Positions 2,922-64,000 are shown, numbered from the stretch's first letter. The stretch: DNA of 64,000 nucleotides from Octopus sinensis (GCF_006345805.1 NC_043009.1:25792001-25856000); one strand, 5' to 3'. A program made the numbers and translations. The notes: generated by a model not told the origin, from the letters alone.

Positions 2922-3130
2922 ACTTTACTACCCACAAGGGGCTACACACAGAGAGGACAGACAAACGGATTAAGGTAATTATATCGACCCCAGTGCGTAA
3001 CTGGTACTTATTTAATCGACCCCGAAAGGATGAAAGGCAAAGTCGACCTCGGCGGAATTTGAACTCAGAACGTAACGGCAGACGAAATACGGCTACACAT
3101 TTCGCCCGGCGTGCTAACGTTTCTGCCAGC
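2922..3130 (-). mobile_element. SINE family B monomer ending in Tx1-like tail, 9-bp TSD
   Basis: TTATAAGTT at 2913-2921 and 3131-3139; B-box-like GAGTTCAAATTCC; tail ...GTAGCCCCTTGTGGGTAGTAAAG. Confidence 0.8.
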
Positions 3131-4107: not shown

Positions 4108-4352
4108 GAATGTATTATAAATAAACAACGACCCTGCCTCGCTTAAGCCGATCAGCTAACTGATCAACAATTTCTTTATTACAATTATAAAAATTAATAC
4201 ATAGAAAGGACGAATACAGGACATACATACATACAAGAAAATTTAAGAGAATCGATTAAAAAAAGTTTCGTTGTATTCGTTATAAGTAATAGTTTTTTCG
4301 TAACTAGTGTTACAAACACTTGTAGCTGACCTTTGTGATTATACTCGAGCTT

Positions 4353-7300
4353 TCACACCCCGGCAATTGTTGAGGCCCTGCAGCTTCCACTTCCTCTCTC
4401 TCCTCCATGGTCAAGCTGGCCTCTCGTACCCACCTTTCTTTCCACTTCCTTCCATCTATTCGCATACACTCCCCGCGGCAGGGTCCTCCTCTCCAGTCCC
4501 ATCTTGCTTCTCAGATGATATCTGAAGTAGGTGAGCAAGCCGGGCCCGGAGACAAATGACCCTGTCGCGGTTCCTTCCATTCTCGTTCTCCACATGCATT
4601 CCTTTACCACTGCAACCGTGCAGTGAAAACATGCCTCACCTTCCTTCGAGAGTCCAGTTGGCGGTATCATCTTAATCATAGACTCAGCCGACAGCTGTAC
4701 TCGTCCCAGATGCGATAACACGTGTTCTGCGTAACTTATCAAGTCGTTCAACTTCCGACAATGAAAAAAAGCGTGCTGAACGGTTTCATCGTCCAGCCCG
4801 CATCTTTGACACGTCGGTGGCACTGGAACTCCGTGCCGTGATAACTTTTCGCGAACAGGTAAAGCATTCCTGTAGCACTGCCAAGCCAGGGATCTTTGGA
4901 AATTATCCAAATACCCCGACCTGAACGTTTTCTTAAACAGATTGGCAAGCTGGTTTTCATCAAACCCCAGAGCCCCTCCTAGGACGTCATCGTTTTTACC
5001 TTCACCAGCCCTCTATAAAATACCGAGGTGGTATTTCCGCAGCCGGCCTTGCCCGCCTTGTGGATCAGCGTGAGTGCCTGTCGGCACTCCTTTTGCCATG
5101 GAGTCAGATTGCATCTTCTGATGTAACCGGGTTTAAAATTAACTAAGGAGGCCGGTCTCGGAAAAAATCCCTCTGCCAACGGACTCCACACCTTATCACC
5201 TTCCAGGTGGTGCCAGAGATGTCTTAGTCTCAACGCATGTCTGCGCATCATTAACCAAGGCATCCCTAACCCACCTTTAACGGTTCTTGACAGCACACGG
5301 AGCGTCTCACAAGTGGCTTTCCTCCTTTCCACAAAAAGCGGAAGAGAGGCTCGTTCCAACTTGTTAAGCCATGAGTCGGGGCAAGGGACGACGGTCAGGC
5401 GGTAGGTGATTACGGATGCAATAAACATCTGCGCCACCTCCGCCCTTCCTTTCAAGGACAGAGACCTTCCGGACCAGGTCCGTATTATGGCCTCCACCTT
5501 GCCGTCACCTCGCTCCAGTTCTTCTCCGTTTGGGAGTCCGGTCCAAACCAGACTCCAGCAACTTAACAGGGCCATCCGTCCAGTGTCCCACAACACTGGA
5601 CAATATCGGCTTGTTCCTCCAGGTGCCGAGGCGCAAGCCGACCGATTTGTCCCTGTTAACCTTTGCTCCTGCCACCGCCTCGTATCCTCTGATAGCCTCC
5701 TCTACACCAGGTAGTTGGGCCTCCTTGGACACGATGAGGGTGATGTCATCCGCATAGGCAGTGACCGACCTCCCACCTCCGATTCCATCTGAGTTACTCC
5801 CCAGCCTCTCCAACCTTCGCAGTAGTGGCTCGAGAGCCAATACGTACAAAAGTGGTGACAAGGGGCACCCCTGACGTACTGAACATTCGATCGAAAACGG
5901 TTCTGTTAGGTAACCGTTTATCTGGACGGTGGACTTGATGCCGCTGTACATAGCGGAGATCCACCCGCGGAATTCGGGACCCAGTCCGGTCGCTTCGAGG
6001 ACCGCCGCCAGGTACCCATGGTCTACCCTATCGAAGGCTTTACTTTGGTCCAAGTGGACCATTACCCCACCTTTGCCGGTTACTTTACCCACCCTATCTA
6101 AGGTGTAGCGTATAAGGTGAAGGTTGTCCTGGATCGACCTGCCTGGAATTGCACATGTCTGTGCTCTCCCTACAAGTTTCTCCACGACAACCGTCAACCT
6201 TTTTGCTAACACCTTGGCCAAAATCTTTAACTCTACATTAAGTAGAGTTATGGGCCTGTAGTTACTAATCATATCCCCTTTGCTCGGGTCTTTCTGGATT
6301 AGCGTCACCACTCCCCGGCTTACAGAACTGGGAATTCTCCCGTTCTGCTGCCAGTTCGTGTAGACGCCTGCCAGTATTCCCCCGAACAAATCCGGCATAT
6401 TTTGGTAAAACTCGTAGGGCAGACCATCCAGCCCCGGCGATTTCTCCCCGGCGCACTCGGCCAGCACTTCCCTTATTTCCGCGGGAGTGATCGCTCCCTC
6501 ACAGCACTCCGCTTCACGCCCCGCGAGCCGCGGCCCGCCGGCCAGGAAGTCCCTTAAGGCACTCCCCCGGTCCAGCGGGCCACCACCCCCGAACACGCGC
6601 GCGAAATGCTGGTGAAGAAACTTTTGCATCTCCTCCTGTCCATAGATCTTTTGTCCCTGTTCGCCAGTCAAAGATTTTATTGAGGCTCTGTTGCCTCTCT
6701 TACTCTCCACACGACGGGCCCATCCGGCTACGTTAACACTTCTCGTTTCCCGGCGCGCAGCTTAGCTCTGACTCTGCAACCTTCGTGTTTGGAGTCAAGG
6801 TGTCGGTACAATACCGTCCTTGCCGCCAGTACTCCGGATGCAGAGCCAGCTTCCATTGCCTCGTCTAGATTCTTAACTAAATCGCCCTCTAGACTAGCTC
6901 TATCTGTCCTTATTCTGATTGCTAAATCTAACGGACTCTAATCGAATGGCTCTTTTGAGGGCGTGCCACCATCTATTGTTAATGACGGTGCCGCACAATG
7001 CCCTCTGAACTAAATCCTTAATCCGGGTACGGAAGTCTTCACAATTCAAAATAGCCTTGTTCAGCTTCCAGTACCCGGGTCCCTGTCTATGACACTTGTC
7101 TAATTGCACCTCACACGTCACAAACTTGTGATCCGAGTAAGGTACAATATGAAATTGTGGACAACTAAACGTCCTATCTCTTTTTTTTATAATTATCCTA
7201 TCTAGGTACGATCTGTGTGAGCCGTCGTAGTTACTCCACGTCCACTGTGGAACGCTCGGCTCATCCAGTCGGTAACGGTCCACTAGATCAAAGCTCTCAG

Positions 7301-7789
7301 TAGACCCTTGAGGCTAGGATTCCCCTTCCTATTAGTTGAGCCAACACTGTCGATGTGCGCTTCAAGGACAGTGTTAAGTCCCCTACTAGTATTACTGTTT
7401 TCGACGTCGCCAGAAAGGGCTCCAGGCTTCGAAAGAAACCCGTCTGTCTACCCTCGTTCGGGGCGTAGACAGCTACCAACCTGAAGGACTGTTTACTTGC
7501 GTGAGTCACATCCAGGACAACCAGCCTGCCTTCTGGGTCCAGAAAGACAGTACTTACCTGCAGGTCCAAGCTCTTCCTGATGAAGACTGCCACGCCTCTT
7601 CCTCCTCCTCGGCTAGGAGAAATAATTTCTCGAAACCATTTAGAAGAGGTGAGAACGCTTGGGTCTCGCTCATCTTGGACTCGGTTACGATAGCAACATC
7701 TATACCTTGTGTCGTGAGGTCGTTCAGGAAACAAATTTGTTTCCGTTTCGACCCATTCCACGTATGTTTAGGCAGCCCAGCTTGGCCAT
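4353..7789 (-). CDS. LINE ORF2 (AP endonuclease, reverse transcriptase, C-terminal zinc-binding), frameshifted
   Basis: MAKLGCLNIRG, VAVYAPN, ILVGD, YLDRI, SDHK, GYWKLN, YRPITLLN, LDQSKAFDRV, VRQGCPLSP, YADD, CQRC..ETVQHAFFHC, spread over several ORF pieces. Confidence 0.92.
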
Positions 7790-9235
7790 GTGAGAGCGAG
7801 AGGGAGAGAAATAACTATACTCACGTTTGTGAAAGGGAGCACGGCGGTCTAATTTTGCCTGCTTCCCTTCTTCCGCTACTGCAGGGCTTTTGACCGGCGT
7901 TGCCACTGGGCTCTGGGTTGGTGTGGTTGCGGGGTTATTGTTAGTTTTCCTTCTAACACCTCTTTGGTGACATCTCTTATTAGGCGGTTCTTCAGGTGTT
8001 CCTGAAGAACCTCCTCCTTCCATTCGTTCTCGCCTACCTTGGCGAAGCGCGCAATTGCTTTTCCATCTGAGGTTTGCTATACAGCATAACCTCGACAGTT
8101 TGCAGCATTTGTAAACTTTTTCGTTTTTTTCATCAAACGCAATTATTTTTTCGTTTTCAATAAGCATTTTTTTGGATCTGTTTTACGGGGAGGGGTTTGG
8201 CAAACTGTTTTCCAATGAAAACAGTGCCATGGGGGTAGGGTTGGGGGATTTGCTTAATGTGTGTGTCTGTAGTGCTAGTTGTTTTTTTCCTTGTTTGGGG
8301 AGGGGAGTCCAGGGTATTTCTTTTTTTCTTTTGTGCGTAACTTGGGTATTCCATCGGTTCTATTGGTCTATTTTTGCTTCCGTATTTGTCTTGGTCGTTT
8401 TGTTGTTCTTCTTAGCTTCCTCTCCCTCCGCATTAGGTACACTTGGAGGGGCCGCATCTTCTGTTCTTTTTTTTCTGATGCAATTGGAACGGACGTGACC
8501 CTTTTCTCCACACTTGAAGCATCTGGGTCTTCGTCCTTCCACCGACACTCTCATGGACGTGCCATCCTCGTTAAAAATCCTGTCAGGCAGGCTCTCCAAG
8601 ATCTTGTTCTCTGCCTGTACGAGGAGCTCCAGAGTCTGACCCCTCCAACGTACCGCTTCCTTCCTTCTCATTTGCAGTATGTTCATTTCGCGTTCCACAT
8701 CATGTAAGACCGCCGCTGCTACCCACATGGTGTCGTATCCTCTGGGTATGTCTTCAACCGTTACCTTTGCGGTTCTCTTCCCCATATACGAGGGTAGCAG
8801 CATGATGTCGTCGTTTTTAAGGGTCAACGACGACACCTCCTTCGCCACCTCTGCCGTGTCAAAGTGTGCTTCGATCGTGGCACTTCGTGCACCTCTCACT
8901 ATATGGCGAATTTTATCCCACACCGGGGCCAAGCATTTCTCAACGGTTTCGTTTTTTACTTCCATGATCTTTTTTTCTTTAAAGTTGTACACTTTATAGA
9001 TTACGATCTTTTCCCTAATTTCTTGCACCTTCGCTTGCGGCGGCACAAGCCTTATTTCTCCTCCTTCTAGTTTTACCAAATTCCTATATTCGTACAGTTG
9101 TTCAATCTTGAATTCTATCTCCAACATGGCGCCGCCCACCGCGGCCGAGAATGATTGCCTGGGTACTGGGTTTTCCTCTTTTCCACCTTTTCCCATCACG
9201 GGAAAGTCTTCCTTCGACGTTAGGTCGAACTCCAT
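7790..9235 (-). CDS. LINE ORF1 (Gag-like, CCHC zinc knuckle), frameshifted
   Basis: 8360-9235 contains VEGRRPRCFKCGEKGHVRSNC and is homologous to the ORF1s at 56475, 58396 and 60398; the C-terminal part lies in other frames. Confidence 0.85.
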
Positions 9236-9779
9236 CTCTGAAGGTTACCTTTAAGGTAACAAGAATATGGTTAGAACAAAATTTTCTGCCCCGTAGGGCG
9301 AAAATTATCGTTTTACGACGGGTACTGTTCAGAACAGTTTACACAAACAATGATATTATAACTTCGAATTCTCTTAAATAGCAGCAGCAAATTTCTCACA
9401 ACGCAAAACGCAACAAACTGCTCCGCAAATGACAGCTAACTGATCAACATCAACGAAGCACATGGGTGAGTTTATATATATTACATCCGGGTAAATGGTA
9501 AACTTTTACGAATTGCATTTCGGGAGAGGAAAAGTTTTTTCGGAATAAAAATTTAGCAATTAAGGACAACTACTTAATAAGGAAAACTTAACAAGAAATT
9601 GTTAAGAAATTGCTAAATTTTTATTCCGAAAAAACTTTTCCTCTCCCGAAATGCAATTCGTAAAAGTTTACCATTTACCGGATGTAATATATATAAACTC
9701 ACCCATGTGCTTCGTGATGTTGATCAGTTAGCTGATCGGCTTAAGCGAGGCAGGGTCGTTGTTTATTTATAATACATTC

Positions 9780-11869: not shown

Positions 11870-12846
11870 ATTATTTTCTACTCTAGGCGCATGGCCCGAA
11901 ATTTTTGGGGAGGGGACCAATCAATTAAATCAACCCCAGTACACAACTGGTACTTAATTTATCGACCCCGAAAGGATGAAAGGAATTTGACGGAATTTGA
12001 ACTCAGAACATAAAGACAGACGAAATACCTATTTCTTTACTACCCACAAGGGGCTAAACACAGAGAGGACAAACAAGGACAGACAAACGGATTAAGTCGA
12101 TTATATCGACCCCAGTGCGTAACTGGTACTTATTTAATCGACCCCGAAAGGATGAAAGGCAAAGTGGACCTTGGCGGAATTTGAACTCAGAACGTAGCGG
12201 CAGACGAAATACCTATTTTTTTACTACCCACAAGGGGCTAAACACAGAGAGGACAAACAAGGACAGAAAAACGGATTGAGTCGATTATATCGATCCCAGT
12301 GCGTAACTGGTACTTAATTTATCGACCCCGAAAGGATGAATAGCAAAGTCGACCTCGGCGGAATTTGAACTCAGAACGTAGCGGCAGACGAAATACCGCT
12401 AAGCATTTCGCCCGGCGTGCTAACGTTTCTTATTTCTTTATTGCCCACAAGGGGCTAAACACAGAGGAGACAAACAAGGACAGACAAACGGATTAAGTCG
12501 ATTAGATCGACCCCAGTGCGTAACCGGTACTTAATTTATCGACCTCGAAAGGATGAAAGGCAAAGTCGACCTCGGCGGAATTTGAACTCAGAACGTAGCG
12601 GCAGACGAAATACCTATTTCTTTACTGCCCACAAGGGGCTACACACAGAGGGGACAAACAAGGACAGACAAACGGATTAAATGAATTATATCGACCCTAG
12701 TGCGTAACTGGTACTTAATTTATCGAACCCGAAAGGATGAAAGGCAAAGTCGACCTCAGCGGAATTTGAACTCAGAACGTAACGGTAGACGAAATACGGC
12801 TACTCATTTCGCCCGGCCTGCTAACGTTTCTGCCAGCTCACCGCCT
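11870..12846 (-). repeat. Tandem array of SINE family B units (~175-180 bp period)
   Basis: Five repeats of the core ...ATCGACCCCGAAAGGATGAAAGG..., four of them joined to the CCCACAAGGGGCT tail. Confidence 0.85.
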
Positions 12847-13049
12847 TCCTATAAATACATTACTGTTCTGATGTTTAGAGTGTCCATTGATGATTATATA
12901 TATGACCCAAACGAAGGAGCTACTTGTTAGTAACTGATAATCCTCTAATAGCAGTAAAATCTCCCCCATCACATTTTATAGTGTCTTATGTATAATATGC
13001 ATACGTGAGTTTTTTTTTGTTATATCGTAGCTCGATATAACAGAAACAT

Positions 13050-15685: not shown

Positions 15686-16470
15686 AGGCGGCGAACTGGC
15701 AGAAACGTTAGCACGCCGGGCGAAATGCTACGTTCTGAATTTGAATTCCCCCGCGGTCGACTTTGCCTTTCATCCTTTTGGGGTCGATTAAATAAGTACC
15801 AGTTACGCACTGAGGTCGATATAATCGACTTAATCCGTTTGTCTGTCCTTGTTTGTTCCCTCTGTGTTTAGCCCCTTGTGGGTAGTAAAGAAATAAATAT
15901 TTCGTCTCTCTTTACGTTCTGAGTTCAAATTCCGCCGAGGCCGACTTTGCATTTCGTCCTTTGGGGATCGACAAATTAAGTACCAGTTACATACTGGAGT
16001 CGATATAATCGACTGGTTTCCTCTCCCAAAATGTCGGGCCTTGTGCCTAGAGTAGAAAAGAATATTAAAGGCGGCGAACTGGCAGAAACGTTAGCGCGCC
16101 GGGCGAAATGCTTAACGGTATTTCGTCTGCCGTTACGTTCTGAGTTCAAATTCCGCCGAGGTCGACTTTGCATTTCATCCTTTCGGGGTCGATAAATTAA
16201 GTACCAGTTACGCACTGGGGTCGATGTAATCGACTTAATCCGTTTTTCTGTCCTTGTTTGTCCTCTCTGTGTTTAGCCCCTTGTGGGTAGTAAAGAAATA
16301 GGTATTTCGTCTGTCTTTACGTTCTGAGTTCAAATTCTGCCAAGGTCGACTTTGCATTTCATCCTTTCGGGGTCGATAAATTAAGTACCAGTTACGTACT
16401 AGGGACGATCTAATCGACTGCCCCACCACCCCAAAAATTTCGGGCCTTGTGCTTAGAGTAGAAAAGAATA
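15686..16470 (+). mobile_element. Two adjacent composite SINE B copies (head-core-tail1-core-tail2)
   Basis: Heads GGCGGCGAACTGGCAGAAACGTTAG at ~15686 and ~16069; tail1 ...GTAAAGAAAT, tail2 ...GGGCCTTGTGC(C/T)TAGAGTAGAAAAGAAT. Confidence 0.8.
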
Positions 16471-44438: not shown

Positions 44439-44821
44439 AGCCAGATCGGAACAGATATTTTCACGAGGCACTTCTGTCCCTGCCTCGGCAAATCTGACCT
44501 AAAATTTTCAAATCATCGCACTCGCGCCTAATTTATCGGCGCAAACAATAAATATAAGCCGCCGATTCCATTACGGAATCAACCAGAAAATTCATAATTA
44601 ATCAATATAGGGTGGCAAAAAAATTTTGTAGAATTTTTTTGCCACCAGCGGCCTAGTGGGAAAAAAATTAAATAGTCATAGACCATTTATAAGTTCAACA
44701 TCACAATCAAGGAACGGCCATAATAGGCCATTCACCACTAGAAATAACAGCCAAAGCTTCAACCGCAAAATAACATTAATTCCGCAAACCAGGAGAAAAT
44801 TAAAAAAACATTTACCCTGTA

Positions 44822-44928
44822 ATTTCTTATACGATGCACCGTTTCATCTATTGTTTAATGGTAAACTAACCTGATTAAATTAAATCAAGCCAATCTTCCA
44901 TAGGCCCTTAGATTCGTCAGTAAGAAAT
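44822..44928 (-). ncRNA. Type I hammerhead ribozyme (F6 copy 2)
   Basis: Same motif: 8-bp helix I, GUA triplet. Confidence 0.85.
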
Positions 44929-45260
44929 AGCCAGATCGGAACAGATATTTTCACGAGGCACTTCTGTCCCTGCCTCGGCAATATCTGACCTAAAATTTTC
45001 AAATCATCGCACTCGCGCCTAATTTATCGGCAGCAAATAAATATAAGCCGCCGATTCCATTACGGAATCAACCAGAAAATTCATAATTAATCAATATAGG
45101 GTGGCAAAAAAATTTTGTAGAATTTTTTTGCCACCAGCGGCCTAGTGGGAAAAAAATTAAATAGTCATAGACCATTTATAAGTTCAACATCACAATCAAG
45201 GAACGGCCATAATAGGCAGGAACAGAAGTGCCTCGTGAAAATATCTGTTCCGATCTGGCT

Positions 45261-45367
45261 ATTTCTTACTGACGAATCTAAGGGCCTATGGAAGATTGGC
45301 TTGATTTAATTTAATCAGGTTAGTTTACCATTAAACAATAGATGAAACGGTGCATCGTATAAGAAAT
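45261..45367 (+). ncRNA. Type I hammerhead ribozyme (F6 inverted copy)
   Basis: atttctta 45261-45268, CTGACGA 45269-45275, GAAA 45344-45347, TA 45358-45359, taagaaat 45360-45367. Confidence 0.85.
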
Positions 45368-46591
45368 TACAGGGTAAATGTTTTTTTAATTTTCTCCTGG
45401 TTTGCGGAATTAATGTTATTTTGCGGTTGAAGCTTTGGCTGTTATTTCTAGTGGGTGAATGGCCTATTATGGCCGTTCCTTGATTGTGATGTTGAACTTA
45501 TAAATGGTCTATGACTATTTAATTTTTTTCCCACTAGGCCGCTGGTGGCAAAAAAATTCTACAAAATTTTTTTTGGACCCTATATTGATTAATATATATA
45601 TATATATATATATAATAGACTTTCTCATACATGACGGGTTTTCAGTTGCCGTCTACCAAATTCACTCACAAAAACTTTGGTCGGCCTGGGGCTAAGGTCG
45701 AAAATATTTGTTCAAGGTGCTGCGCAGTGGGACTGAACACGAGACCCACGTTTGCACAGCGAGCTTCTTAACCATACAGCCATGTCTGCGTCGATGACGC
45801 GGAGTTAAAAACAAATTGGAAAGCAAACGAATAAAAATCTAATAACACGACTGAGACGCACAGAGTGTTAGAAAAACGAAAAACAAAAGAATTTTACTGA
45901 ATCTTTAATAAATTAATCAACTTTCAAGACATTAAATGTTACTGCTGTCACCTGCTCATTGTTTCTCCTCTTCCCACCACCTTTGTCTTCAATATCCAGT
46001 TTGAATCTCTCGACGATCAAATAAAATATTCATATATTTCTAGAAGAAAATATAAATCTCGACAAAATGTTTTTAATAAGACGAGTCGGAAACACGACAG
46101 GTCGGCGAGGCCTAGTCTTAAATTTTCTTTTTGCTTGGAAACTATGGCAGGGCCTCCGAAATAGTGGAAGTGAAAGAGAAGGGTGTTTCCAAACAAAAGA
46201 CATGCCCCGAATGTTTGCAATAGAAAAGATTCCGCTAAAAGGTACTCCTGTAACCCTAGAACCCAACGTTCATGTAAAACCGATCAGGTATATTACCTAT
46301 ATAGGCCACGGCGAGATTTGAACTTAGAATGTAAAGAGCCAGAACAAATACTGCGAATCACTGGTTCGAAGTTGTTACAGTACCACCAACCCACCGCTTC
46401 GAAATGGTAGTTCTTTTTTTCATCGATCCCGAAAAACCAAAAAGGTAAAGTTAACCTCAACGGTATTTGAACTCAAAATGCTGGATGCTAGCATTGATAC
46501 AGCAAGGAACTCCATGCGACACTCTAGCGACTGCAAACACACTGCCTGGAATTAGTATGCAGCAAGGGAAAAGGGAACACAAGTGAACAAT

Positions 46592-48349: not shown

Positions 48350-48744
48350 TAGTAATTCTTTCTAATTTTGGAATAATGCCAACAATTTTCGGGGTAAATT
48401 ATGTCAGTTACATCAACCTCACTACTTTCCTACTTGCTTTATCGACCTCGAAAGGATGGAAAGCAAAGTTTAGCTCAGCGCAGAATGTGAACTCAGAATG
48501 TAAAGAGAATAAGAATAATGGTTTCAAATTTTGCCACAAGGGCAGCCATTTTGGGGAAGGGGATGAGTCGATCACAACAACCCTCAGTACTCAACTGGTA
48601 CTTAATCTATCGACCCCGAAAGGATGAAAGGTAAAGTCGACCTCGGTGGAATTGGAACTCAGAATGTAGCGACGGGCAAAATACCGCTAAGCATGTTGCC
48701 CAGAGTGCTAACGATTCTGCCAACTCATCGCCGTAATAATAATA

Positions 48745-48775
<31 letters not shown>

Positions 48776-49545
48776 TTCAAATTTTGCCACGAGGGCAGCA
48801 ACTTTGGGGGGGGAGTTAGTCGATTATATCGACCGCAGTGCGTAACTGGTACTTATTTGATCGACCCTAAAAGGATGAATGGCAAAGTCGACCTCGGCGG
48901 AATTTGAACTCAGAACGTAGCGGCAGACGAAATTCCTATTTCTTTACTATCCACAAGGGGTTAAACACAGAGAGGACAAACAAGGACAGACAAGCGGATT
49001 AAGTCGATTATATCGACCCCAGTGCGTAACTGGTACTTATTTAATCGACCCCGAAAAGGATGAAAGGCACAGTTGACTTCGGCGGAATTTGAACACAGAA
49101 CGTAGCGGCGTGCCAACGTTTCTGCCAGCTCGCCGCCTTAAAGGGAATAATAATAATAAAGGTACATGACCAGAAATTTTGGCGAGAGGGGGCAACTCGA
49201 TTACATCGACTCCAGTGCTCGGCTGCTACTTAATTTACAGACCCTGAAATGATGAAAGGCCAAAGTAACCATAGTGGAATCTGAACTCAGAACGTAAAAC
49301 CGAAAAAAAATAATAATAATAATAATAATGCCGCCAAGTATATCGACCGGTGCGTTAAGCACTCTGCCAGCAGAACAATAATTGCTTCAAAATTTGGCCC
49401 AAAGCCATCAGTCTGTCGAGGGAGGTGAAGAGTCAATCACATTGACCTCAGTACTTAACTGGTACTTTATTTAGAACGTAAAAACGGACGAAATGTCGTT
49501 AAGCATTCTGCTCGGCGTGCTAACGATTCTGCCAGCTCGCCGCCT

Positions 49546-49583
<38 letters not shown>

Positions 49584-49995
49584 TATTATTATTATACACC
49601 TTTCTACTATAGGCACAAGGCCTGAAATTTGGGGATGGGGACCAGTCGATTACATCGAATCCAGTACGCAAATGGTACTTAATTTATCGACCCCGAAAGG
49701 ATGAAAGGCAAAGATAACCTCGGCGAAATTTGAACTCAGAACGTAACGACGGTTGAAATACCTATTTCTTTACTACCCACAAGGGGCTAAACACACAGAA
49801 TACAAACAAAGACACACAAACGGATTTAGTCGATTATATCGACCCCAGTGCGTAACTGGTACTTATTTAATCGACCCCGAAAGGATGAAAAGCAAAGACG
49901 ACCTCGGCGGAATTTGAACTCAGAACGTAACGGCAGACGAAATACCGCTAAGCATTTTACCCGGAATGCTAACGATTCTGCCAGCTCGCCGACTT
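48350..49995 (-). repeat. Cluster of SINE B copies separated by (AAT)n
   Basis: About seven cores, all in the same orientation, with (AAT)n spacers. Confidence 0.8.
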
Positions 49996-51049
49996 TTAAT
50001 AATAATAATAATAATGATAATAATAATCCCTTACGTAGGCAATAAGCTAAAATGTTGCTTTTAAGGGGGAACAAGAAAACCGATTAAAACTATTCCCGCA
50101 ATAATTCTATCGATTGTGAATGAAAAATATTGCAGCAGATTAATTCAAAGTAATTAACTAACTACTTGTTAAGAAACCACTCAATCATATGTCATTACTT
50201 AATCTACATTGACTTCGCTTTTAATCGGGTTTCATAATTCCGAAGAGAATACGATACTTAACTACTACTTCATTCAATCTGAATTTAAATTTTATATTAG
50301 CTGTAACAATTAATAATATTATAACTGAATTTACGAAGTAAGAGAAAATGTTGTTTGAATGCTCATCACTACCCACCCCCCCACACACATATATATATAC
50401 ATATATATATATATACATATATATATATGTATATTCACACCCACACACACATATATGTACAAACACATATATGCACACACACATATACAAATACACATAT
50501 ATACATACATGCGTATATGTATGTACATACATACATATACGCATAATCGCATACATATATACATAATCGCATACATATATACATATACGCATACATATAC
50601 GCATACATATACGCATGCACACATATACATACACATATACATACATATACACACACATACATACATATACGGTTTAAAAAGCCGATACATAGGTCTTCAC
50701 ATGTATACACATGTATATAATTCCTCTCTTCTTAACACAAATATATTTAAATATGAGAGTGTATGTGTGTGCCTGTGTGTATATTTACACATGTGTGTGG
50801 GAACAAAAATACACACACTGGTTGTGGTTCGAATTTTAGTTAATTATTAATTAACTCCCTGGACAACTGAGGCCATTCCAATGATTTTGCCTCAAATGAG
50901 TTTTCTTCCATTTTATGTTTGGTCTTTATACGTATTTCATTTTGTGTATGTGCGTATATGTGTGTGTGTGCGCTTGAGGGTTGTGTATATGCGTGCATGA
51001 GTGCTTGACTGCTGTGTATATACGTGTTTCTGTGTTATACACTTTTACC

Positions 51050-53793: not shown

Positions 53794-54190
53794 AAGGCGG
53801 CGAGCTGGAAGAAACGTTAGTGGGCCGGGCGAAATGCGTAGCCGTATTTCGTCTGCCATTACGTTCTGAGTTCAAATTCCGCCGAGGTAGATTTTGCCTT
53901 TCATCTTTTCGGGGTCGATTAAATAAGTACCAGCTACGCACTGGGGTCGATATAATCAACTTAATCCGTTTGTCTGTCCTTGTTTGTTCTCTCTGTGTTT
54001 AGCCCCTTGTGGGCAGTAAAGAAATAGGTATTTCATCTATCTTTACGTTCTGGGTCCAAATTCGCCGAGGTCGAGTTTGCATTTCATCCTTTCGGGCTCG
54101 ATAAATTAAGTACCAGTTGCGTACTGCGGTAGGTCTAATCGACTGGCCCCTCCTCCAAAATTTCGAGCCTTATGCCTAGAGTAGAAAAGG
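53794..54190 (+). mobile_element. Composite SINE B
   Basis: head-core-tail1-core-tail2, as at 16069-16470. Confidence 0.8.
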
Positions 54191-54528: not shown

Positions 54529-54544
54529 TGAGTGAGTGAGTGAG

Positions 54545-54575
<31 letters not shown>

Positions 54576-54618
54576 AAGAGACTTTTAGTTTCCGTCTACC
54601 AAATTCACTCACAAGGGT

Positions 54619-55472
54619 CTAAAACAAACATCCCTTTCAACCTTGCAAGAAGGATATGCACAATAGTGTCAGAACAAAATACCAGGAACGTTAGATTACA
54701 AGAACTCAAAAACACCCTAATTGACAGACACTACCCAGCTCAACTCATAGAGGATGGGATCAGACGTGCAACAGAAATCAACATAGAAACTTTGAGAAAA
54801 GTTCAACACAACAACACACCTTCCCCGAAAATACTGCCTTACATATCCACATACAACCCCAGAAACAAAGAAGCCTTCACCATCATCACCCAGAATTTAC
54901 CAATACTTCACAAGGACCCCAAATTAAAGGAAATTCTAAACATACATAAAATCATTAAAAGCTACAAACAACCTAAATCACTTAAAAAGATTCTCACAAA
55001 GGCAAAATTGCTTTCTGAAATTACGGATGCAAAAGTAAAAAAATGTGGTAGACCAAACTGCGTAACATGTCCAAACCTTCTAGAAGGATCAGAATTCTTC
55101 TTCAAAGAGGGACAAAAATTCAAGATCAAATCTAATTTTACTTGTGCTTCTGAAAATATAATTTATGTCATAAGATGCTCGGGCTGCCACCAAAACTACG
55201 TGTGGTCCACGGGACTATCACTCAGATGGAGATGCACACTGCATCGACAACAGATTGCATTCCCAGAATACAGAATGATACTCTTTAGTGAGCATATTGA
55301 GAAATGCGCAAAGCAACTACTACCACAATTTATAATCTTTCCATTTTATCAATGTGCTATTGGAACACCAACACAAATTAGACTAAACAGGAAACATTCT
55401 TCATTGAAAAATATAAGCCCAAACTTAACCACTCTAACATTCTTATACAGAGAAACTCATCCCATTAAATAA
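54619..55472 (+). CDS. 5'-truncated Penelope-like element: RT thumb, Cys-rich linker and GIY-YIG endonuclease
   Basis: NIPFNLARRICTIVS..RHYP; KCGRPNCVTC; TCASENIIYVIRCSGCHQNYV..T..LR.R..LH. The first ~26 aa of the listed ORF come from microsatellite/SINE sequence. Confidence 0.85.
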
Positions 55473-55797
55473 AAGAGGCAAGAAATATAAAGCGATTATC
55501 TCCCTTACACTGGAAGAAATCACTTATTACCTCCCCTTACCTGGAACTCTTCTTTACACGTCATAACGAAGTCATAACACGATGTTTTGAGAAATTTGAA
55601 AAGTTAACACGAAATCGGTAATTTCTTCAAAAACTGTCACTGTATGAAAAAAATTTATAACATTCTTCTGACATAATGACTCAAATATATTTTTTAACCT
55701 TTTAAAACAAGCCTTCTGTAGTTTTTTCACTTTTTACTATTTTCTATATATTCAACCAGGTGCTTTCACACACCAACTTTCTCACCTATATATATAT

Positions 55798-56323
55798 ATC
55801 TTTATATATATAAAATTGAGAATGTGTGTCTGTCTGTCTGTGTGTTTCCCTAAAACTTGAGAACTACACAACCAATTCCATTCAAATTTTACACATGCCT
55901 TACTTAGAGTCCATGTAGTTTCATGGACAAAAAATGTTCAACTTCTTGCCTAGAGCGAGCCCATAGCAATATCATATCTTCTCCACTATTTCAGTATTAC
56001 GTGTTAAAAGTGAAACAAAAACGTTTCTCTACTTTGTCAGATACTTTCATTTTAACAATAAAAAATAATGATAACAATTGAATTATATATAGTAAGTAAT
56101 AATTAAAATCAAACTAAAGTAACATGACAAAAGTAAAAATAGCAATTGGTATAAAATTGCATCAATGATTTGAACATGAATAAGTGGTTTCACATGAATG
56201 GGAATAAATTAAAAATAAAATTAGCCTGCAGAAATGGAAGAGTCAAGATGGATAATAAAAAATTAAATTAAAGAAAAAACTATTGTCTATAAAGTATAAA
56301 ATGTAGAGAAAAAAGATTTTCAC
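55798..56323 (+). mobile_element. Probable non-autonomous Helitron-like 5' portion
   Basis: A|TCTTTATATATATAAAA start followed by (GTCT)n, as in many animal non-autonomous Helitrons; no 3' end seen. Confidence 0.45.
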
Positions 56324-58243
56324 ACGCGGCTCCAAGCTATATACGTGTGTTGTGAGTTATTTATATGTGAAAATTGAAAAAAGACGGTTAAAAGTTGTCA
56401 AAAATTGAATCGCGCGAGGCGTTTTGCCGCTGCGTGTTTGAACCTTTTATAGAAGGTGTGTCGACCCTCAAGTCATGGAGACTTACGCAGGGGTCGCCAC
56501 AACAAAAAGTGACGAGTCTCTTAGAATAAGAGAAGTGTTCTTTAGAAAAGAACAATTGAAGGAATACGAGAAGTTCGTCAAAAGGGAGGGTGACAGCGTG
56601 AAGCTGGTCCCGCCTGTGGAAACAATAGAAGAGAAAAATAACATGACGATAACGTATAGAACGCAAGATAGAAACACGAGAAAACTGGTGAGAGTGACGA
56701 TTGAAGAAATAGAGAAATGTCTGGGGGACATCATGAAAAAAGCGACTTTTGTAGACAGAGGAAAGAAATATGGTACGGTGGAGGTGAGATGCGCAACAAA
56801 GGAAGTGGCGGCCTCATTGGCTTCCACTGTCCTGAAAGCGGAAAATTTCACCATGTGGCCGACGTATAAAGGAAGACGAGGGGTACGGGTAAGAGTCCCA
56901 AAGGTACCCCCAAATATAAAACAGAAATGCTGGTAACAGCCATTATTGGAGCAGCAAAAGAGGAAGTAGAAATAGGGTCAATTAAGGAGACGAACGTTGT
57001 AAATTGGAAGGGATTCGGAGTCGAGTTGTGGCTAATGGCCACAATGGAAGACATCGAAAGATTTCCCTTCCAAATAGAAATAGAAAACGAGAAGACAATT
57101 AGTGTAATAGTGGAAGGCAGAAAACCGAACTGCTACCTGTGCGGATCAAGAGGGCACATAAAAAAGGAATGTCCGCTGAATGAATTCACAGCGGAGCAAA
57201 AAGAGACACAAAGTGGAGAGAAGGAAAACGAACACGAAGGAAAGAACAGCGAAAACAAGGAAAAGGAAATAACGGAGAAACAACAAGAGAAGGGAAGTAA
57301 CAGCGCACTGAAGGAAAATGAAAACAAAGGGAAGAAGATAGTAGAAGAGGAGCAAAATTCACAGGGTGCAGAAGTAGTGGAGAAGGAGCCAAGGCAGAAG
57401 CAAGAGAAAGAAAAGGAAAGTACATTAAAGGAAAGAGAAAAAGCAGGAAAAGAACAAGAGAAGGAACAGAAACAAGAGAAAGGAAAAGATGGTATGCAAA
57501 AAGGAAAAGAAACAACAGGAAAGGAACTTAAGGCACAGGGTAGAGAGACGGCAGACAAAGAGCCAAAAAGACAAGAGAAGGAAAAAGAAAGAAGAGAAAG
57601 CAGAAAGAGAGAAACCGAGGGACGAGAAAAAAGAGGAAGTAAGTCCCAAGAGAAAAACTAGAGAAAACGTAGGTACGAATAGAAAATACAAATACTATGG
57701 AACGTTGATCCATCACAAGCACTGTGAGGAGATGGAAGATTTAATAAGCGCAACAAACGGATATACGTGGGTCAGGATGGGCACCGAATGGGAAGAAACA
57801 GGTGCACTCATCCACGAGAACGACGCCGAGGCGTTCATCGAGGCAGCTGGCGAGAACGTGTTAAAACATATGAAATGCCGACTTAAAAGGTGGCCTCGAA
57901 CGATGGAACCTTACTCAGATTTGGTAGACATAATGGAGTGTATAGAATAGAAAAGGTATTGTGAAAACTTAATTTGGAAATGATAAAAAGAACTTTAAAT
58001 TCTGAAAAAAAAAAAAAAAGGAAATGTTGAACTTTGTAAAACTTTTTGAAATGTATGTTGAAAATGTAAAAAATGTTTTATTTGATAATATTGTTGACGA
58101 ACAAAATTAATTGACGAAATGTAACCGCTCGATTTCGGGGATCGAGCGGGCATTACACCACATTGTACAAACTTCATAATTCATTATTCATTCCCGATTG
58201 TATTGTCCCATCTATGTAGCCCCTAGTGGGTAATAATAAAACA
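56324..58243 (+). mobile_element. ORF1-only Tx1-related non-autonomous element, copy 1 (1920 bp)
   Basis: 5'UTR, Gag-like ORF, ~290-bp 3'UTR ending GTAGCCCCTAGTGGGTAATAATAAAACA; no endonuclease or RT. Confidence 0.85.
56475..57950 (+). CDS. Gag-like ORF1 (CCHC knuckle, K/E-rich linker, C-terminal domain), frameshifted
   Basis: VDRGKKYGTVEVRC, EGRKPNCYLCGSRGHIKKECP; the first frameshift is absent in copy 2. Confidence 0.8.
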
Positions 58244-60170
58244 ACGCGGCTCCAAGCTATATACGTGTGTTGTGAGTTATTTTATATGTGAAAATTGAAA
58301 AAAGACGGTTAAAAGTTGTCAAAAATTGAATCGCGCGAGGCGTTTTGCCGCTGCGTGTTTGAACCTTTTATAGAAGGTGTGTCGACCCTCAAGTCATGGA
58401 GACTTACGCGGGGGTCGCCACAACAAAAAGTGACGAGTCTCTTAGAATAAGAGAAGTGTTCTTTAGAAAAGAACAATTGAAGGAATACGAGAAGTTCGTC
58501 AAAAGGGAGGGTGACAGCGTGAAGCTGGTCCCGCCTGTGGAAACAATAGAAGAGAAAAATAACATCACGATAACGTATAGAACGCAAGATAGAAACACGA
58601 GAAAACTGGTGAGAGTGACGATTGAAGAAATAGAGAAATGTCTGGGGGCATCATGAAAAAAGCGACTTTTGTAGACAGAGGAAAGAAATATGGTACGGTG
58701 GAGGTGAGATGCGCAACAAAGGAAGTGGCGGCCTCATTGGCTTCCACTGTCCTGAAAGCGGAAAATTTCACCATGTGGCCGACGTATAAAGGAAGACGAG
58801 GGGTACGGGTAAGAGTCCCAAAGGTACCCCCAAATATTAAAACAGAAATGCTGGTAACAGCCATTATTGGAGCAGCAAAAGAGGAAGTAGAAATAGGGTC
58901 AATTAAGGAGACGAACGTTGTAAATTGGAAGGGATTCGGAGTCGAGTTGTGGCTGATGGCCACAATTGAAGACATCGAAAGATTTCCCTTCCAAATAGAA
59001 ATAGAAAACGAGAAAAACAATTAGTGTAATAGTGGAAGGCAGAAAACCGAATTGCTACCTGTGCGGTTCAAGAGGGCCATAAAAAAGGAATGTCCGCTGT
59101 ATGAATTCACAGCGGAGCAAAAAGAGACACAAAGTGGAGAGAAGGAAAACGAACACGAAGGAAAGAACAGCGAAAACAAGGAAAAGGAAATAACGGAGAA
59201 ACAACAAGAGAAGGGAAGTAACAGCGCACTGAAGGAAAATGAAAACAAAGGGAAGAAGATAGTAGAAAAGGAGCAAAATTCACAGGGTGCAGAAGTAGAG
59301 GAGAAGGAGCCAAGGCAGAAGCAAAGAAAGAAAAGAAAGTACATTAAAGGAAAGAGAAAAAGCAGGAAAAGAACAAGAGAAGGAACAGAACCAAGAGAAA
59401 GGAAAAGATGGTATGCAAAAAGGAAAAGAAACAACAGGAAAGGAACTTAAGGCACAGGGTAGAGAGACGGCAGACAAAGAGTCAAAAGACAAGAGAAGGA
59501 AAAGAAAGAAGAGAAAGCAAAAAGAGAGAAAGAGAGAAACCGAGGAGGAGAAAAAAGAGGAAGTAAGTCCTAAGAGAAAAACTAGAGAAAACGCAGGTAC
59601 GAATAGAAAATTCAAATACTATGGAACGTTGATCCATCACAAGCACTGTGAGGAGATGGAAGATTTAATAAGCGAAACAAACGGATATACGTGGGTCAGG
59701 ATGGGCACCGAATGGAAAGAAACAGGTGCACTCGTCCACGAGAACGACGCCGAGGCGTTCATCGAGGCAGCTGGCGAGAACGTGTTAAAACATATGAAAT
59801 GCCGACTTCCAAGGTGGCCTCGAACGATGGAAGTTTACTCAGATTTGGTAGACATAATGGAGTATATATAAAAGAAAAGGTATTGTGAAAACTTTAATTT
59901 GGAAATGATAAAAGAACTTTAAATTCGGAAAAAAAAAAAAAAAAAGAAATGTTGAACTTTGTAAAACTTTTTGAAATGTATGTTGAAAATGTATAAAATG
60001 TTTTATTTGAAAATATTGTTGACGAATAAAAATAAATGACGAAATGTAACCGCTCGATTTCGGGGATCGAGTGGGCATTGCACCACATTGTACAAACTTC
60101 ATAATTCATTATTCATTTTCCCGATTGTATTGTCCCATCTATGTAGCCCCTAGTGGGTAATAATAAAACA
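58244..60170 (+). mobile_element. ORF1-only element, copy 2 (head-to-tail with copy 1)
   Basis: Highly similar to 56324-58243, with substitutions and indels. Confidence 0.85.
58396..59871 (+). CDS. Gag-like ORF1, copy 2, frameshifted
   Basis: Same protein in pieces 58396-58656, 58638-59024, 59052-59450 and 59413-59871. Confidence 0.75.
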
Positions 60171-60397
60171 ACGCGTCGGAAATCAATTTTTTGCGTTATT
60201 AGTAAGTTGATATATTTTTGCTCTCGTACTGTTGTCTCTGTTATTATATACTGTTGGTCTACCTGTTTTGTCTATTGTTGTCTAACTTACGAAGTCAGCC
60301 TTCGCGCGAGGACTTCGCGTTGGTGTTCCCCCCTCAGTGGGGGAAAACTACAATTAATTTGGATTTACCAAAGGCTTGTTAAAGCCATTTCTTCAAG

Positions 60398-61786
60398 ATG
60401 GAGTCCCCCATATCTTATTCGCCCGTGACGAGCGAGGATGAATACCCGGCGTTGTCACCAAGAAAAAAAGAGGCGTTGTCGCCAAGAAAAAAAGAGACGT
60501 TGTCGCCGAAGAAAAAAAGAGACGTTGTCGCCGAAGAAAAAAGAGGCGGCGTCGCCCAAGAAAATGGAAAAACCAGTACCAGCATCAACTCCAGCAAAAA
60601 AATTCGCTGAAGTGGCTGGGAAAAAGATCAAAAAAATAAATATAGAAAATTTAAAAAAATTTGCAGACTGTGTAAAAAAAGAGGGCACAGAAGTGACTGT
60701 GGCCACAAACATACAAATACATGACGATATAGAAAAAAAAAGAATAATATATAAAACTTACGACACAACGAAAAAAATGATCCAAAAAATCGAAGAGAAA
60801 AAAATAGAGTTATGTTTGAAACCAATAATGGACAAAATAACATATATAAACAGAGGTAAAAAATACGGCACAGTGGAGGTGCGTTTTACCTCTGAAGAGA
60901 TAGCAAAAAAACTATCAATGGAGACTTTCAAAGCAGAAAACATCGTTCTATTACCATTATACAGAGGAAAGCGGACATCAAAAATTACAATAAACAACAT
61001 TCCCCCAGAGGCAGATGCAGAATGTCTGGTGGCAGCAGTGATGGTAGGCCTGGAGGAAAAAATAAACATCCTCCAGGCCACAGTGGAAGAAGAGGAGTTC
61101 TGGAAAGGACAAAAGATAGTGATAGCCATTCACTGGAAGAAATTCCAGAAACAGTAAAAATTAGCGAAGAGGAAAAAATAACTGTTTTCGTGGAGGGCAG
61201 GAAGCCGAGGTGCTTCGGCTGCGGCAAGAAGGGTCATGTAAGGGCGGAATGCCAACCCCAACCCAAACCGCAGGAAGCACCGAAGCCAAGAGAAAAAGAA
61301 GAAAATGTGTCACCAGAAGCAGCGTCGGACGGACCAGAAGGGAAGACCGAAGCTGTGGAGGTGACGGTGACAGCAGAACCAGCGGCGGAGGAGAATAAGA
61401 GCGAGGAAAAGATAAATGAAGAGGGGTGGAAAAAAATTACCGGAAAAAAAAAAAGAAAAACGGATACCAACCCTCCAAGAATAATTTTAAAAAAGAAAAG
61501 AGAGACAATGGACTCATATATAGCCGTAAAGGCAGCAAATAGCAGACTAGGAAACGTGTTGGCTGCTATGGCCAAAGTGGAGAAAGTGGAAAAGAAAAAT
61601 GACTTTGTAATCTACAGAATAGGCCGGAAGGATTACGGGCGGATAAAATCCGAGTTCTTCCACGACGTCGGCCCACTTAGATTGGATGTGACATCTCCAC
61701 ATATATTCGAGGGCCTACGTCAGACTCCCCCACGAGGCCCAGAAAAAGAGTTAGAAGAACAAGAGAAAACCGAACCACTGATATAA
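60398..61786 (+). CDS. LINE ORF1 (SPKK-type repeats, CCHC knuckle), frameshifted
   Basis: MESPISYSP..LSPRKK repeats; INRGKKYGTVEVRF; EGRKPRCFGCGKKGHVRAEC. Confidence 0.85.
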
Positions 61787-61794
61787 AGGTAAGT

Positions 61795-64000
61795 ATGGAT
61801 TACATTTATGTTGGTTGTTTGAATGTGCGCGGCCTGGGAACAGGCTGGAAGCAAGGTCGCTTCCTGCATGATATCAGGTCGCGTAATTTAGATGTTATTG
61901 TTGCTACAGAAACCCGGTTAGAGGGGCCAAGAGGTCTGCTCCCGCTGTTTGACGGCTACGAGAGTTTTTTCTCTCCTGGCAGTCCTACAGGCGAGAGTGG
62001 GGTGTTGGTCCTATTAAAAAGAAACCGGGTTTCTGAGAAAAAGTTAATTTTTGCAGATCCAGAAGGTAGGCTGGTCGTCATGGATTTGACGTTCAGTAAT
62101 GGTAAAGTTATCAGACTGGTTGCAATTTACGCACCCAACCATACAGGGCAAAGTGATTATTTTCGTGAACTAGAAAACTTTCTTGGTACTTCGCATTCAT
62201 TAGTGGTGCTAGGAGACTTTAACACAATTTGCAAAGCGGATGTAGATTGTGTTGGCTCGCGTCCAGATAGAAAAGGCAACAGTGGCTTCATGGAACTGCT
62301 AAGCCGCTTTGAGCTAGCAGATCCTTATAGGCTGGAATTTCCGAACGCTCCATTGTGGACATGGTCAAACAGCGACGGATCTTCCAGGTCATATTTAGAT
62401 AGAATACTAATTAGAAAAGTAGACAGTAAAATAGCTAAGTGTCCACAGTTTTACCCGATCAGCTACAGTGATCATAAAATGGTCACTTGTAAGCTTGACA
62501 TAGATAAGGTTAAAAATAGAGGATCCGGTTACTGGAAACTTAATACGTCCCTTTTGGCGATTAAGGAGTACAAAGACCGGATTAGGGATATAATTCAGAG
62601 GGCACTATCTGGTACCATCATTAATAACAAATGGTGGTACGCCCTCAAACGAGCCATCAAGTTCGAGTCAATTAGATATAGCATAGGAGTAGTGGCTAGA
62701 GAGGCTAGAAGGGAAACTACTCTAGTTAAGGAATTAGAGGAAGCCTTGAAAACTGGCTCAGGTGACGGCCAAGAGACTGGTGTTAAACCAGCACCTCGAG
62801 GCCAAACACATGGGCTGCATTGTCAGGGCTAGAATCCGCCATATGGGTTGTGAAGGAATCAACGCCGTAAGATGGGCCCGAGTGGTGGAAGCACAGCAAG
62901 GTAACGATGCCACGATTCGATCTTTGACGAACCAACAAGGTGAGTTGATAAACGAGCCCGAGGAGATGTGTGAGGCCTTTCAGGAGTACTTCGCTCAGCT
63001 TTTCGGTGAGTGCGGCGGACTGGATAGGAGGAGGGCCTTTACGGACTTACTCGACGGGCTGCCGCGCTTGTCGGGGCGAGATGCGGAGGGCTGTGAAGGG
63101 CCAATCACGCCTGAGGAGGTGGTTGAGGCAATGGCGGACTGCGGCGCGGGCAAGGCGCCGGGTTTGGATGGTCTACCCTATGAGTTATATAAGAGTATGC
63201 CAGACTTGTTCGGGCACCTACTGGCGGAGGTCTATGCGAACTGGTGGCAGAACGGGCTTATACCCAGATCTGTGCGCCGGGGAGTAGTGACACTCGTCAG
63301 AAAGGACCCGAGCAAGGGGGAGTGCATTGATAATTTCAGGCCCATCACTCTGCTAAACAGAGTTGAAGATTTTGGCCAAAGTGTTATCGAAAAGATTGGC
63401 GCGTGTCGCGGATGGTCTGATCGGGGAGGCACAAACATGTGCCGTTCCGGGCAGAACCATTCAGGATAATCTCCATCTAATGCGGTACACTATAGAGGGG
63501 TTTAATAGTGATTCTGGCAAGGGTGGGGCACTGGTCCATTTAGACCAATCTAAAGCATTTGATAGGGTCGACCATAGTTACCTGGTATCTGCCCTGGCAC
63601 AGTTCGGGCTGAGCCTTGGCTTCCTCAGGTGGATTATCCAAATTTATGATAACATCGACTCGGTAGTTCGGGTGAACGGATTCTTGTCGAAGCCGTTCAA
63701 AATCAAACGCTCGGTTCGTCAAGGGTGTCCGCTCTCCCCGCTTTTGTACGTGATGGCTTTAGAGCCATTACTGCGAAAACTGAGCGGCATCCCCAGACAG
63801 CCAGGTAATGGAAAATCAGTGTCAGCGTACGCGGATGACATCACCATCATCGTAACCGAAATGGACCACCTATGTAAAGTAGGCAAGGCCATAGAGGTTT
63901 ACGAGACGGTGACAGGAGCAAAAGTTAATCGCGAAAAGTCAGTCGGCTTGCAACTCGGCACCTGGAGAGGCAAGTCGATGCCTCCTGAGCATCGTGGGAC
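61795..64000 (+). CDS. LINE ORF2 (AP endonuclease and reverse transcriptase), partial, frameshifted
   Basis: GCLNVRGL, TET, VLGDFN, YLDRI, SDHK, GYWKLN, FRPITLLN, LDQSKAFDRV, VRQGCPLSP, YADD. Confidence 0.92.

Follow-up and report, generated by a model that had tools for sequence, protein, structure and literature searches.

An abundant octopus repeat with a single LINE reading frame and a SINE-shared tail, probably a mobile non-autonomous derivative of an L1-group LINE

What are the two similar units of about 1.9 kb that stand head-to-tail in front of a long interspersed nuclear element (LINE) on chromosome sequence NC_043009.1 of Octopus sinensis? We addressed this question computationally in a window of 64,000 nucleotides (nt) (GCF_006345805.1, NC_043009.1:25792001-25856000); positions are those of the whole window, on the plus strand unless stated otherwise, and the features are collected in Table 1. 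We consider it quite probable that both units are copies, by now decayed, of an abundant octopus repeat whose only coding part is the first open reading frame (ORF1) of a LINE, and that this repeat ends in a tail shared with a short interspersed nuclear element (SINE), derives from an L1-group (Tx1-like) LINE, and is likely mobile non-autonomously.

Aligned with each other, the two units give 1877 matches, 35 substitutions, and 24 gap columns, and a LINE with an ORF1, an apurinic/apyrimidinic-type (APE) endonuclease, and a reverse transcriptase (RT) starts at 60171, directly after unit 2. That the tandem units have no ORF2, as an earlier note on this DNA had described, was confirmed: the ORF1 stop is followed by 293 nt of 3' untranslated region (UTR) up to the unit end, and a tblastn search with six ORF2 pieces of the window found no trace of an endonuclease or an RT inside either unit (best E 0.079). 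The DNA similarity between the units and the neighboring LINE is limited to about 83 nt at 70 to 71%. The divergence between the units, 35 changes in 1912 columns, corresponds by hand calculation to about 2.5 million years at the rate quoted in PMC13282606 (per million years, 0.0036 substitutions at each site); insofar as errors are among the changes, this age is an upper bound.

As assembled, the ORF1 frame is interrupted in both units. Unit 1 is short of 1 nt near 56917 and of 8 nt near 57602; in unit 2, seven single nucleotides are lost and one is gained. Nowhere do the breaks of the two units coincide, and when each break is read as X, frames of 494 and 493 codons, respectively, run without an internal stop. 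The ORF1 of the earlier note exists as one such reconstructed frame, but is broken in both assembled copies. At six of the eight unit 2 indels, public contigs have the unit 1 state (among the 12 of 45 indel rows that were listed), and for the other two, compatible loose ends were found in run X10. An O. vulgaris protein, P0151 (CAI9725568.1), runs in one frame from the knuckle region through the linker to the C-terminal domain, with 86% identity to unit 1 over 212 columns. The contigs and P0151 support a family frame open for about 494 codons, and in the units themselves the indels may reflect decay or assembly error.

The encoded protein consists, in order, of predicted tandem RNA recognition motifs (RRMs), one CCHC zinc knuckle, a linker rich in lysine and glutamate, and a C-terminal domain of about 90 amino acids (aa). 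The knuckle was the sole match in a Pfam scan of the unit ORF1, and Pfam scans gave no match to Transposase_22. The fold evidence comes from a proxy: we modeled P0001 of O. bimaculoides, which among full-length relatives is the closest (47.7% identity to the unit ORF1 over 239 columns). This model is confident in the first 240 residues and, taken whole, showed weak and consistent similarity to tandem-RRM proteins (30 matches at an E value of 0.001 or less, with low TM-scores). Judged by this model, the unit ORF1 fits type I, i.e., RRM before CCHC in the classification of PMC4120745, and not a true Gag; the "Gag-like" label of the earlier note applies to the single CCHC knuckle, but the remainder resembles tandem RRMs. 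The C-terminal domain had zero Atlas matches, and its single-sequence model was unusable (pLDDT 44). An HMMER scan with ORF1 returned 177 matches, and nine of the ten relatives looked up were from Octopus bimaculoides, O. vulgaris, O. sinensis, or Argonauta; a word-indexed protein search of the ORF1 N-terminal piece against longer proteins gave none among 667 candidates.

The unit ORF1 is homologous to the ORF1s of two ORF2-bearing LINEs in the window, and its core shares 36.6% identity (74 of 202 columns) with that of the neighbor. We built a tree of 31 ORF1 cores, comprising the four window sequences and those 27 database proteins, from 150 fetched, in which 150 or more residues were aligned. 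In this tree, the units are sister to P0001 (99/91), and the neighbor's ORF1 pairs with O. vulgaris P0006 (100/99), apart from the units. This placement, together with the 36.6% identity, indicates that the unit is not a deletion of this neighbor, fresh or otherwise, in line with the divergence that had been noticed earlier. A separate octopus ORF1 clade was also seen (P0024, P0040, P0046, and P0062; 97/97), three members of which begin like the unit ORF1, with a very short N-terminus; these may be further ORF1-only families.

The neighboring LINE is an L1-group element. Its full-length ORF2 relatives are about 1150 aa long and contain PF03372, PF00078, and PF13966, i.e., an APE endonuclease, an RT, and a C-terminal zf-RVT, with no RNase H. 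Among solved structures, human L1 ORF2p is the nearest to the window ORF2s that accompany relatives of the unit ORF1, although in one case the margin over R2 is small. The LINE likely belongs to Tx1, a label based on its architecture; no named Tx1 reference was present among the 120 matches listed.

Parts of the stretch were found in 20 of the 22 listed sequencing runs, with three organisms and eight studies represented. We mapped contigs of four runs, one of which may be the source of the assembly, on 58180-61900, a stretch that comprises unit 2 and the LINE ORF1 and lies to the right of the left junction. The runs yielded 1670, 1736, 787, and 122 contigs, and all four covered 30 of 30 bins. 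The median summed depth of the unit was 2.3 to 3.3 times that of the LINE ORF1 in the three large runs, a ratio that is not a copy number. The majority-allele rows of run X2 reached about 7,000 to 9,000, against 20 to 120 for isolated contigs, and these depths suggest a hundred unit copies or more. The strongest point is a second subfamily with the same layout from the ORF1 end to the hairpin of the 3' UTR: record 3 of run X1 and record 12 of X10 are about 89% identical to unit 2 and pass from the 3' part of ORF1 into the same hairpin across a gap of at most 182 nt (198 in the window). The joint is listed for X2 too, and the subfamily contigs stop before the tail itself. A high-copy family with such a subfamily is therefore not a one-off deletion, and the non-autonomous ORF1-only family without ORF2 that the earlier note had postulated is borne out by these multicopy contigs. 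Its own refuting case, that the unit exists only here, is contradicted by contigs in runs of three organisms and by P0151, which places the family in O. vulgaris. Exact scans of metagenome and prokaryote contigs for the tail and hairpin motifs gave 0 matches, as expected for octopus DNA.

The same data bear on the explanation that an autonomous family with this ORF1 gave rise to the units by internal deletion, which would make them ordinary bipartite deletion derivatives with ORF1 as a passenger rather than a lineage maintained through selection on ORF1. The two ORF1s differ by 17 nonsynonymous and 6 synonymous changes (pN 0.014, pS 0.021), and their pN/pS of about 0.7, indistinguishable from 1, counts in favor of this explanation. 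However, two subfamilies about 11% apart have a common layout, and the frame that reads support stays open for about 494 codons. Moreover, among the 24 loose ends listed (635 more exist), none behind the ORF1 stop leads into an ORF2, whereas such loose ends do occur at the ORF1/ORF2 border of the neighbor (61795). We regard this explanation as decidedly unlikely.

At the 3' end, none of 200 shuffles was as stable as the unit 1 hairpin and 4 of 200 reached that of unit 2, both of whose stem changes preserve G-U pairs. A folded structure for the last 64 nt was unsupported (z -0.24), and an Rfam search of 55700-60450 gave one match at chance level. The last 45 nt or so of the units are homologous to the tail of a repeat common in the window, which we take to be a SINE from its anatomy; this homology is new in this analysis. 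When the unit tail was compared with each of three SINE copies, 0 of 2000 shuffles reached the score, and a profile of 10 SINE tails recovered both unit tails at an E value of about 1e-5, with the next match at 0.4. The alignment sets the unit ends at 58243 and 60170, immediately 5' of ACGCG. The "LINE-like tail" of the earlier note is not poly(A) but a homologue of this SINE tail. A solo SINE copy near 2930-3130 lies between 9-nt direct repeats, and the shared tail is therefore likely a working 3' end. SINEs usually have tails in common with partner LINEs (PMC4494074).

We considered the window LINE at 4170-9432 as the helper and dropped it, its tail being weakly similar (the pairwise scores were reached by 4, 5, and 48 of 2000 shuffles) and missed by the tail profile. 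Loose ends of X1 at 60089 and 58198 represent other sequences that run into the same hairpin or tail, and at the joint 59406-60037 in X2, X4, and X10, different neighbors stand beside shared 3' parts. These 3' parts are thus common to further repeats, one of which may be the helper LINE. A chimera would be another way to arrive at this end: the ORF1 would be of the L1 group, the tail would stem from a SINE or from some LINE outside that clade, and the element would use a noncognate RT. The tail is indeed far closer to the SINE than to the tail of the LINE at 4170-9432, the sole L1-group LINE tail that the window contains in full, and for SINEs, tail swapping by template switching has been proposed (PMC4824008). 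It is simpler, however, that the unit and the SINE both obtained the tail from one L1-group LINE outside our view, and the X1 loose ends fit a wider family of tails; the 9-nt duplication of the solo SINE fits APE-type insertion and is uninformative on the clade. We therefore judge a chimera unlikely.

The SINE-like repeat also forms head-to-tail arrays with 184-nt spacing at 11900-12850 (minus), 15690-16450 (plus), 48500-50000 (minus), and 53800-54150 (plus). Inner units end in the same tail as the ORF1-only element, and the last unit, where read, ends in a different one; the array at 11900-12850 is bounded by one 18-nt direct repeat. Nine of the ten SINE tails continue into more SINE sequence, eight of them at one junction. 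These arrays represent either a dimeric or multimeric SINE or one SINE inserting into the head of another. We rejected them as proof that such tails stack by repeated insertion, since a master dimer explains them equally well.

How did the stack of two units and a LINE arise? ACGCG, which occurs 45 times in 128,000 strand positions of the window, is present at 56324, 58244, and 60171, as the earlier note had pointed out, but these are not three independent events, since the first two both mark the head of the same element. The genuine coincidences are those between left flank and unit head and with the LINE head. The left flank and the junctions that follow the tails agree over ACGCG only, with no indel. 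A contig whose depth is about tenfold the minimum of its run terminates at the tail plus ACG, which hints weakly that more than one copy has ACG after its tail. We tentatively lean toward insertions one after the other into a single site, where ACGCG would be a short duplication. A single event, in which the RT would jump from the 5' end of the LINE RNA to unit RNAs and ACGCG would be a shared 5' end, is possible but somewhat doubtful; template jumping is reportedly known from R2 (Bibillo and Eickbush) and from U6-L1 chimeras. Local duplication of one unit appears improbable.

The last of these options is part of a broader objection, that the ORF1-only family is real but its tandem here is a local duplication (e.g., through the 5-bp repeats) or an assembly artifact, the adjacency of the LINE being chance or a single event. 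Both units have the same minority base at 58451/56530, at about 10% of depth (X2, X4, and X10; by subtraction), which favors a common source; purine runs contain many 1-nt indels, which points to an assembly from noisy long reads, and a junction-bridging contig is absent among the pieces listed. On the other hand, each unit has private changes: relative to P0151 and the X1 contigs, unit 2 deviates in mid-ORF1 and unit 1 in its last 220 nt, and record 4 of X1 is identical to unit 2 along 218 nt in which unit 1 shows seven substitutions and a 2-nt gap. These changes argue against a plain assembly repeat. In addition, the repeat ends exactly at the element head and tail with a 5-bp overlap, which would be atypical of false duplications. 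We thus find this objection rather unlikely to be correct. The left flank itself (55790-56323, plus) is AT-rich and has no second copy in the window; its start resembles the 5' end of nonautonomous Helitrons.

Taken as a non-autonomous family, the element would have arisen by an ancient loss of ORF2 from an L1-group (Tx1-like) LINE, which is the likely origin of its ORF1-only state. Transcription would start in the unit 5' UTR, and the RNA would be packaged by its own RRM/CCHC ORF1 protein into a ribonucleoprotein. The borrowed ORF2 of a LINE that recognizes the tail would then copy this RNA in trans by target-primed reverse transcription. An ORF1 without RT, combined with a SINE-shared tail, indicates that the element likely spreads by borrowing the enzyme of another LINE.

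Several observations weigh against this reading. In the window, no autonomous LINE with the unit tail was found, and the 3' end of the neighbor lies beyond it. No solo unit insertion with a target-site duplication was seen, the window offering only the 5-nt ACGCG, and a 5-bp duplication is short compared with 17, 18, and 9 nt at other insertions in the window. Neither 58244 nor 60171 is spanned by any of the 32 listed contig pieces (4345 more exist). No homology was detectable between the C-terminal domain and its counterparts in five related ORF1s (against shuffles, rank 589 of 1002), and the pN/pS value that does not depart from 1 comes from only two dead copies. A bolder version, which we think improbable, is that the half-LINE captured its SINE-type tail, uses a nonancestral RT, routinely coinserts 5' of helper LINEs to form mixed stacks, and competes with the dominant SINE for one ORF2. 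If true, it would be a chimeric ORF1-only parasite building mixed head-to-tail stacks across octopus genomes.

ORF1-present bipartite non-autonomous LINEs have been listed from three clades, L1, Jockey, and CR1, namely, HAL1, HeT-A, and Ag-Sponge (PMC5786205). HAL1 is non-autonomous, encodes ORF1p only, and has several origins (PMC5753468, PMC5786205). The octopus unit is likewise a non-autonomous LINE derivative encoding only ORF1 and has the features of this class, i.e., one LINE ORF1 protein, no ORF2 before the 3' end, and an amplified family. HAL1 is of mammalian L1 origin with a type II ORF1 (coiled coil, one RRM, and a C-terminal domain; Transposase_22), whereas the octopus unit has a predicted type I ORF1 with CCHC, a SINE-shared tail instead of poly(A), and octopod homologues. 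Our verdict is a HAL1-like ORF1-only non-autonomous LINE of independent octopod origin.

HeT-A of Drosophila and Ag-Sponge of Anopheles resemble the unit as ORF1-present bipartite non-autonomous LINEs but belong to the Jockey and CR1 clades, whereas the ORF1 relatives of the unit are tied to L1-like ORF2s. HeT-A is reported in head-to-tail arrays (PMC5537684, PMC13534243), but the octopus stack has only two units, with repeat-rich ordinary DNA on its left and nothing pointing to a telomere. Of the two analogues proposed in the earlier note, HAL1 therefore stands as a class, and the likeness to HeT-A ends at "ORF1-only, in tandem." In crocodilians, SINEU-3 and Tx1 elements are described as inserted in tandem within a DNA transposon, with a target-site duplication sandwiched between them (PMC4494074), a precedent for reading the octopus stack as sequential insertion, although SINEU-3 has no ORF and a 16-nt duplication, compared with 5 nt at most here. 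In O. vulgaris, 80 L1-Tx1 families are reported, 13 of them recently active (PMC13282606); the available text and supplement of that study do not mention ORF1-only elements, and its Zenodo library may hold the unit family. A search by title and abstract found no ORF1-only element from octopus or of Tx1 origin; the family may already be in Repbase, Dfam, or the Zenodo collection, which lay outside this search.

Other features of the window include the LINE at 4170-9432 (minus), a second full-length L1-group element that is frameshifted, inserted in a repeat, and flanked by a perfect 17-nt target-site duplication; in its left flank (9433-9760 region), about 250 nt that include the target are present as an inverted copy. 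A 310-codon open frame at 54540-55472 (plus) looks like the C-terminal part of a Penelope-like element (GIY-YIG region), although a Pfam scan of a 166-aa part gave no confirmation of this identity. An inverted repeat at 44735-45454, with 241-nt arms that are 100% complementary and 238 nt apart, is either a young foldback element or an assembly artifact.

Table 1. Coordinates of the stacked units, the neighboring LINE, and a SINE array in the 64,000-nt window
Feature	Position	Strand	Remarks
Left junction ACGCG	56324..56328	+	5-bp target-site duplication or first element bases
Unit 1, ORF1-only non-autonomous LINE copy	56324..58243	+	Unit alignment, ORF reading
Unit 1 5' UTR	56324..56474	+	151 nt; no DNA match to 5' UTR of neighboring LINE
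Unit 1 ORF1	56475..57950	+	494 codons with X at two breaks (near 56917, 57602)
Unit 1 CCHC zinc knuckle	57128..57175	+	Pfam PF00098, E 1.2e-5
Unit 1 3' UTR hairpin	58119..58157	+	z -3.2
Unit 1 3' tail	58198..58243	+	Homologous to SINE tail of the same window
Unit 2, second ORF1-only copy	58244..60170	+	
Unit 2 ORF1	58396..59871	+	493 codons when breaks are read as X; eight 1-nt indels
Unit 2 hairpin	near 60043..60082	+	
Unit 2 tail	60125..60170	+	
ACGCG between unit 2 tail and LINE head	60171..60175	+	
Neighboring L1-group (Tx1-like) LINE	60171..64000	+	RT runs off the window
Neighboring LINE, ORF1	about 60398..61786	+	Frameshifted
Neighboring LINE, endonuclease	from 61795	+	
SINE array	12030..12676	-	Holds 4 of 10 SINE tails matching the unit tail; context only

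The ORF1-only strategy is already known in other animals, and our understanding of retrotransposition itself is unchanged by this element. An abundant and fairly young octopus family of Tx1-like lineage with a type I ORF1 would nevertheless be a further independent origin of ORF1-only LINEs. It is a natural test of why a parasite retains ORF1 yet loses ORF2, and its SINE-shared tail points toward the LINE that drives an abundant octopus SINE.

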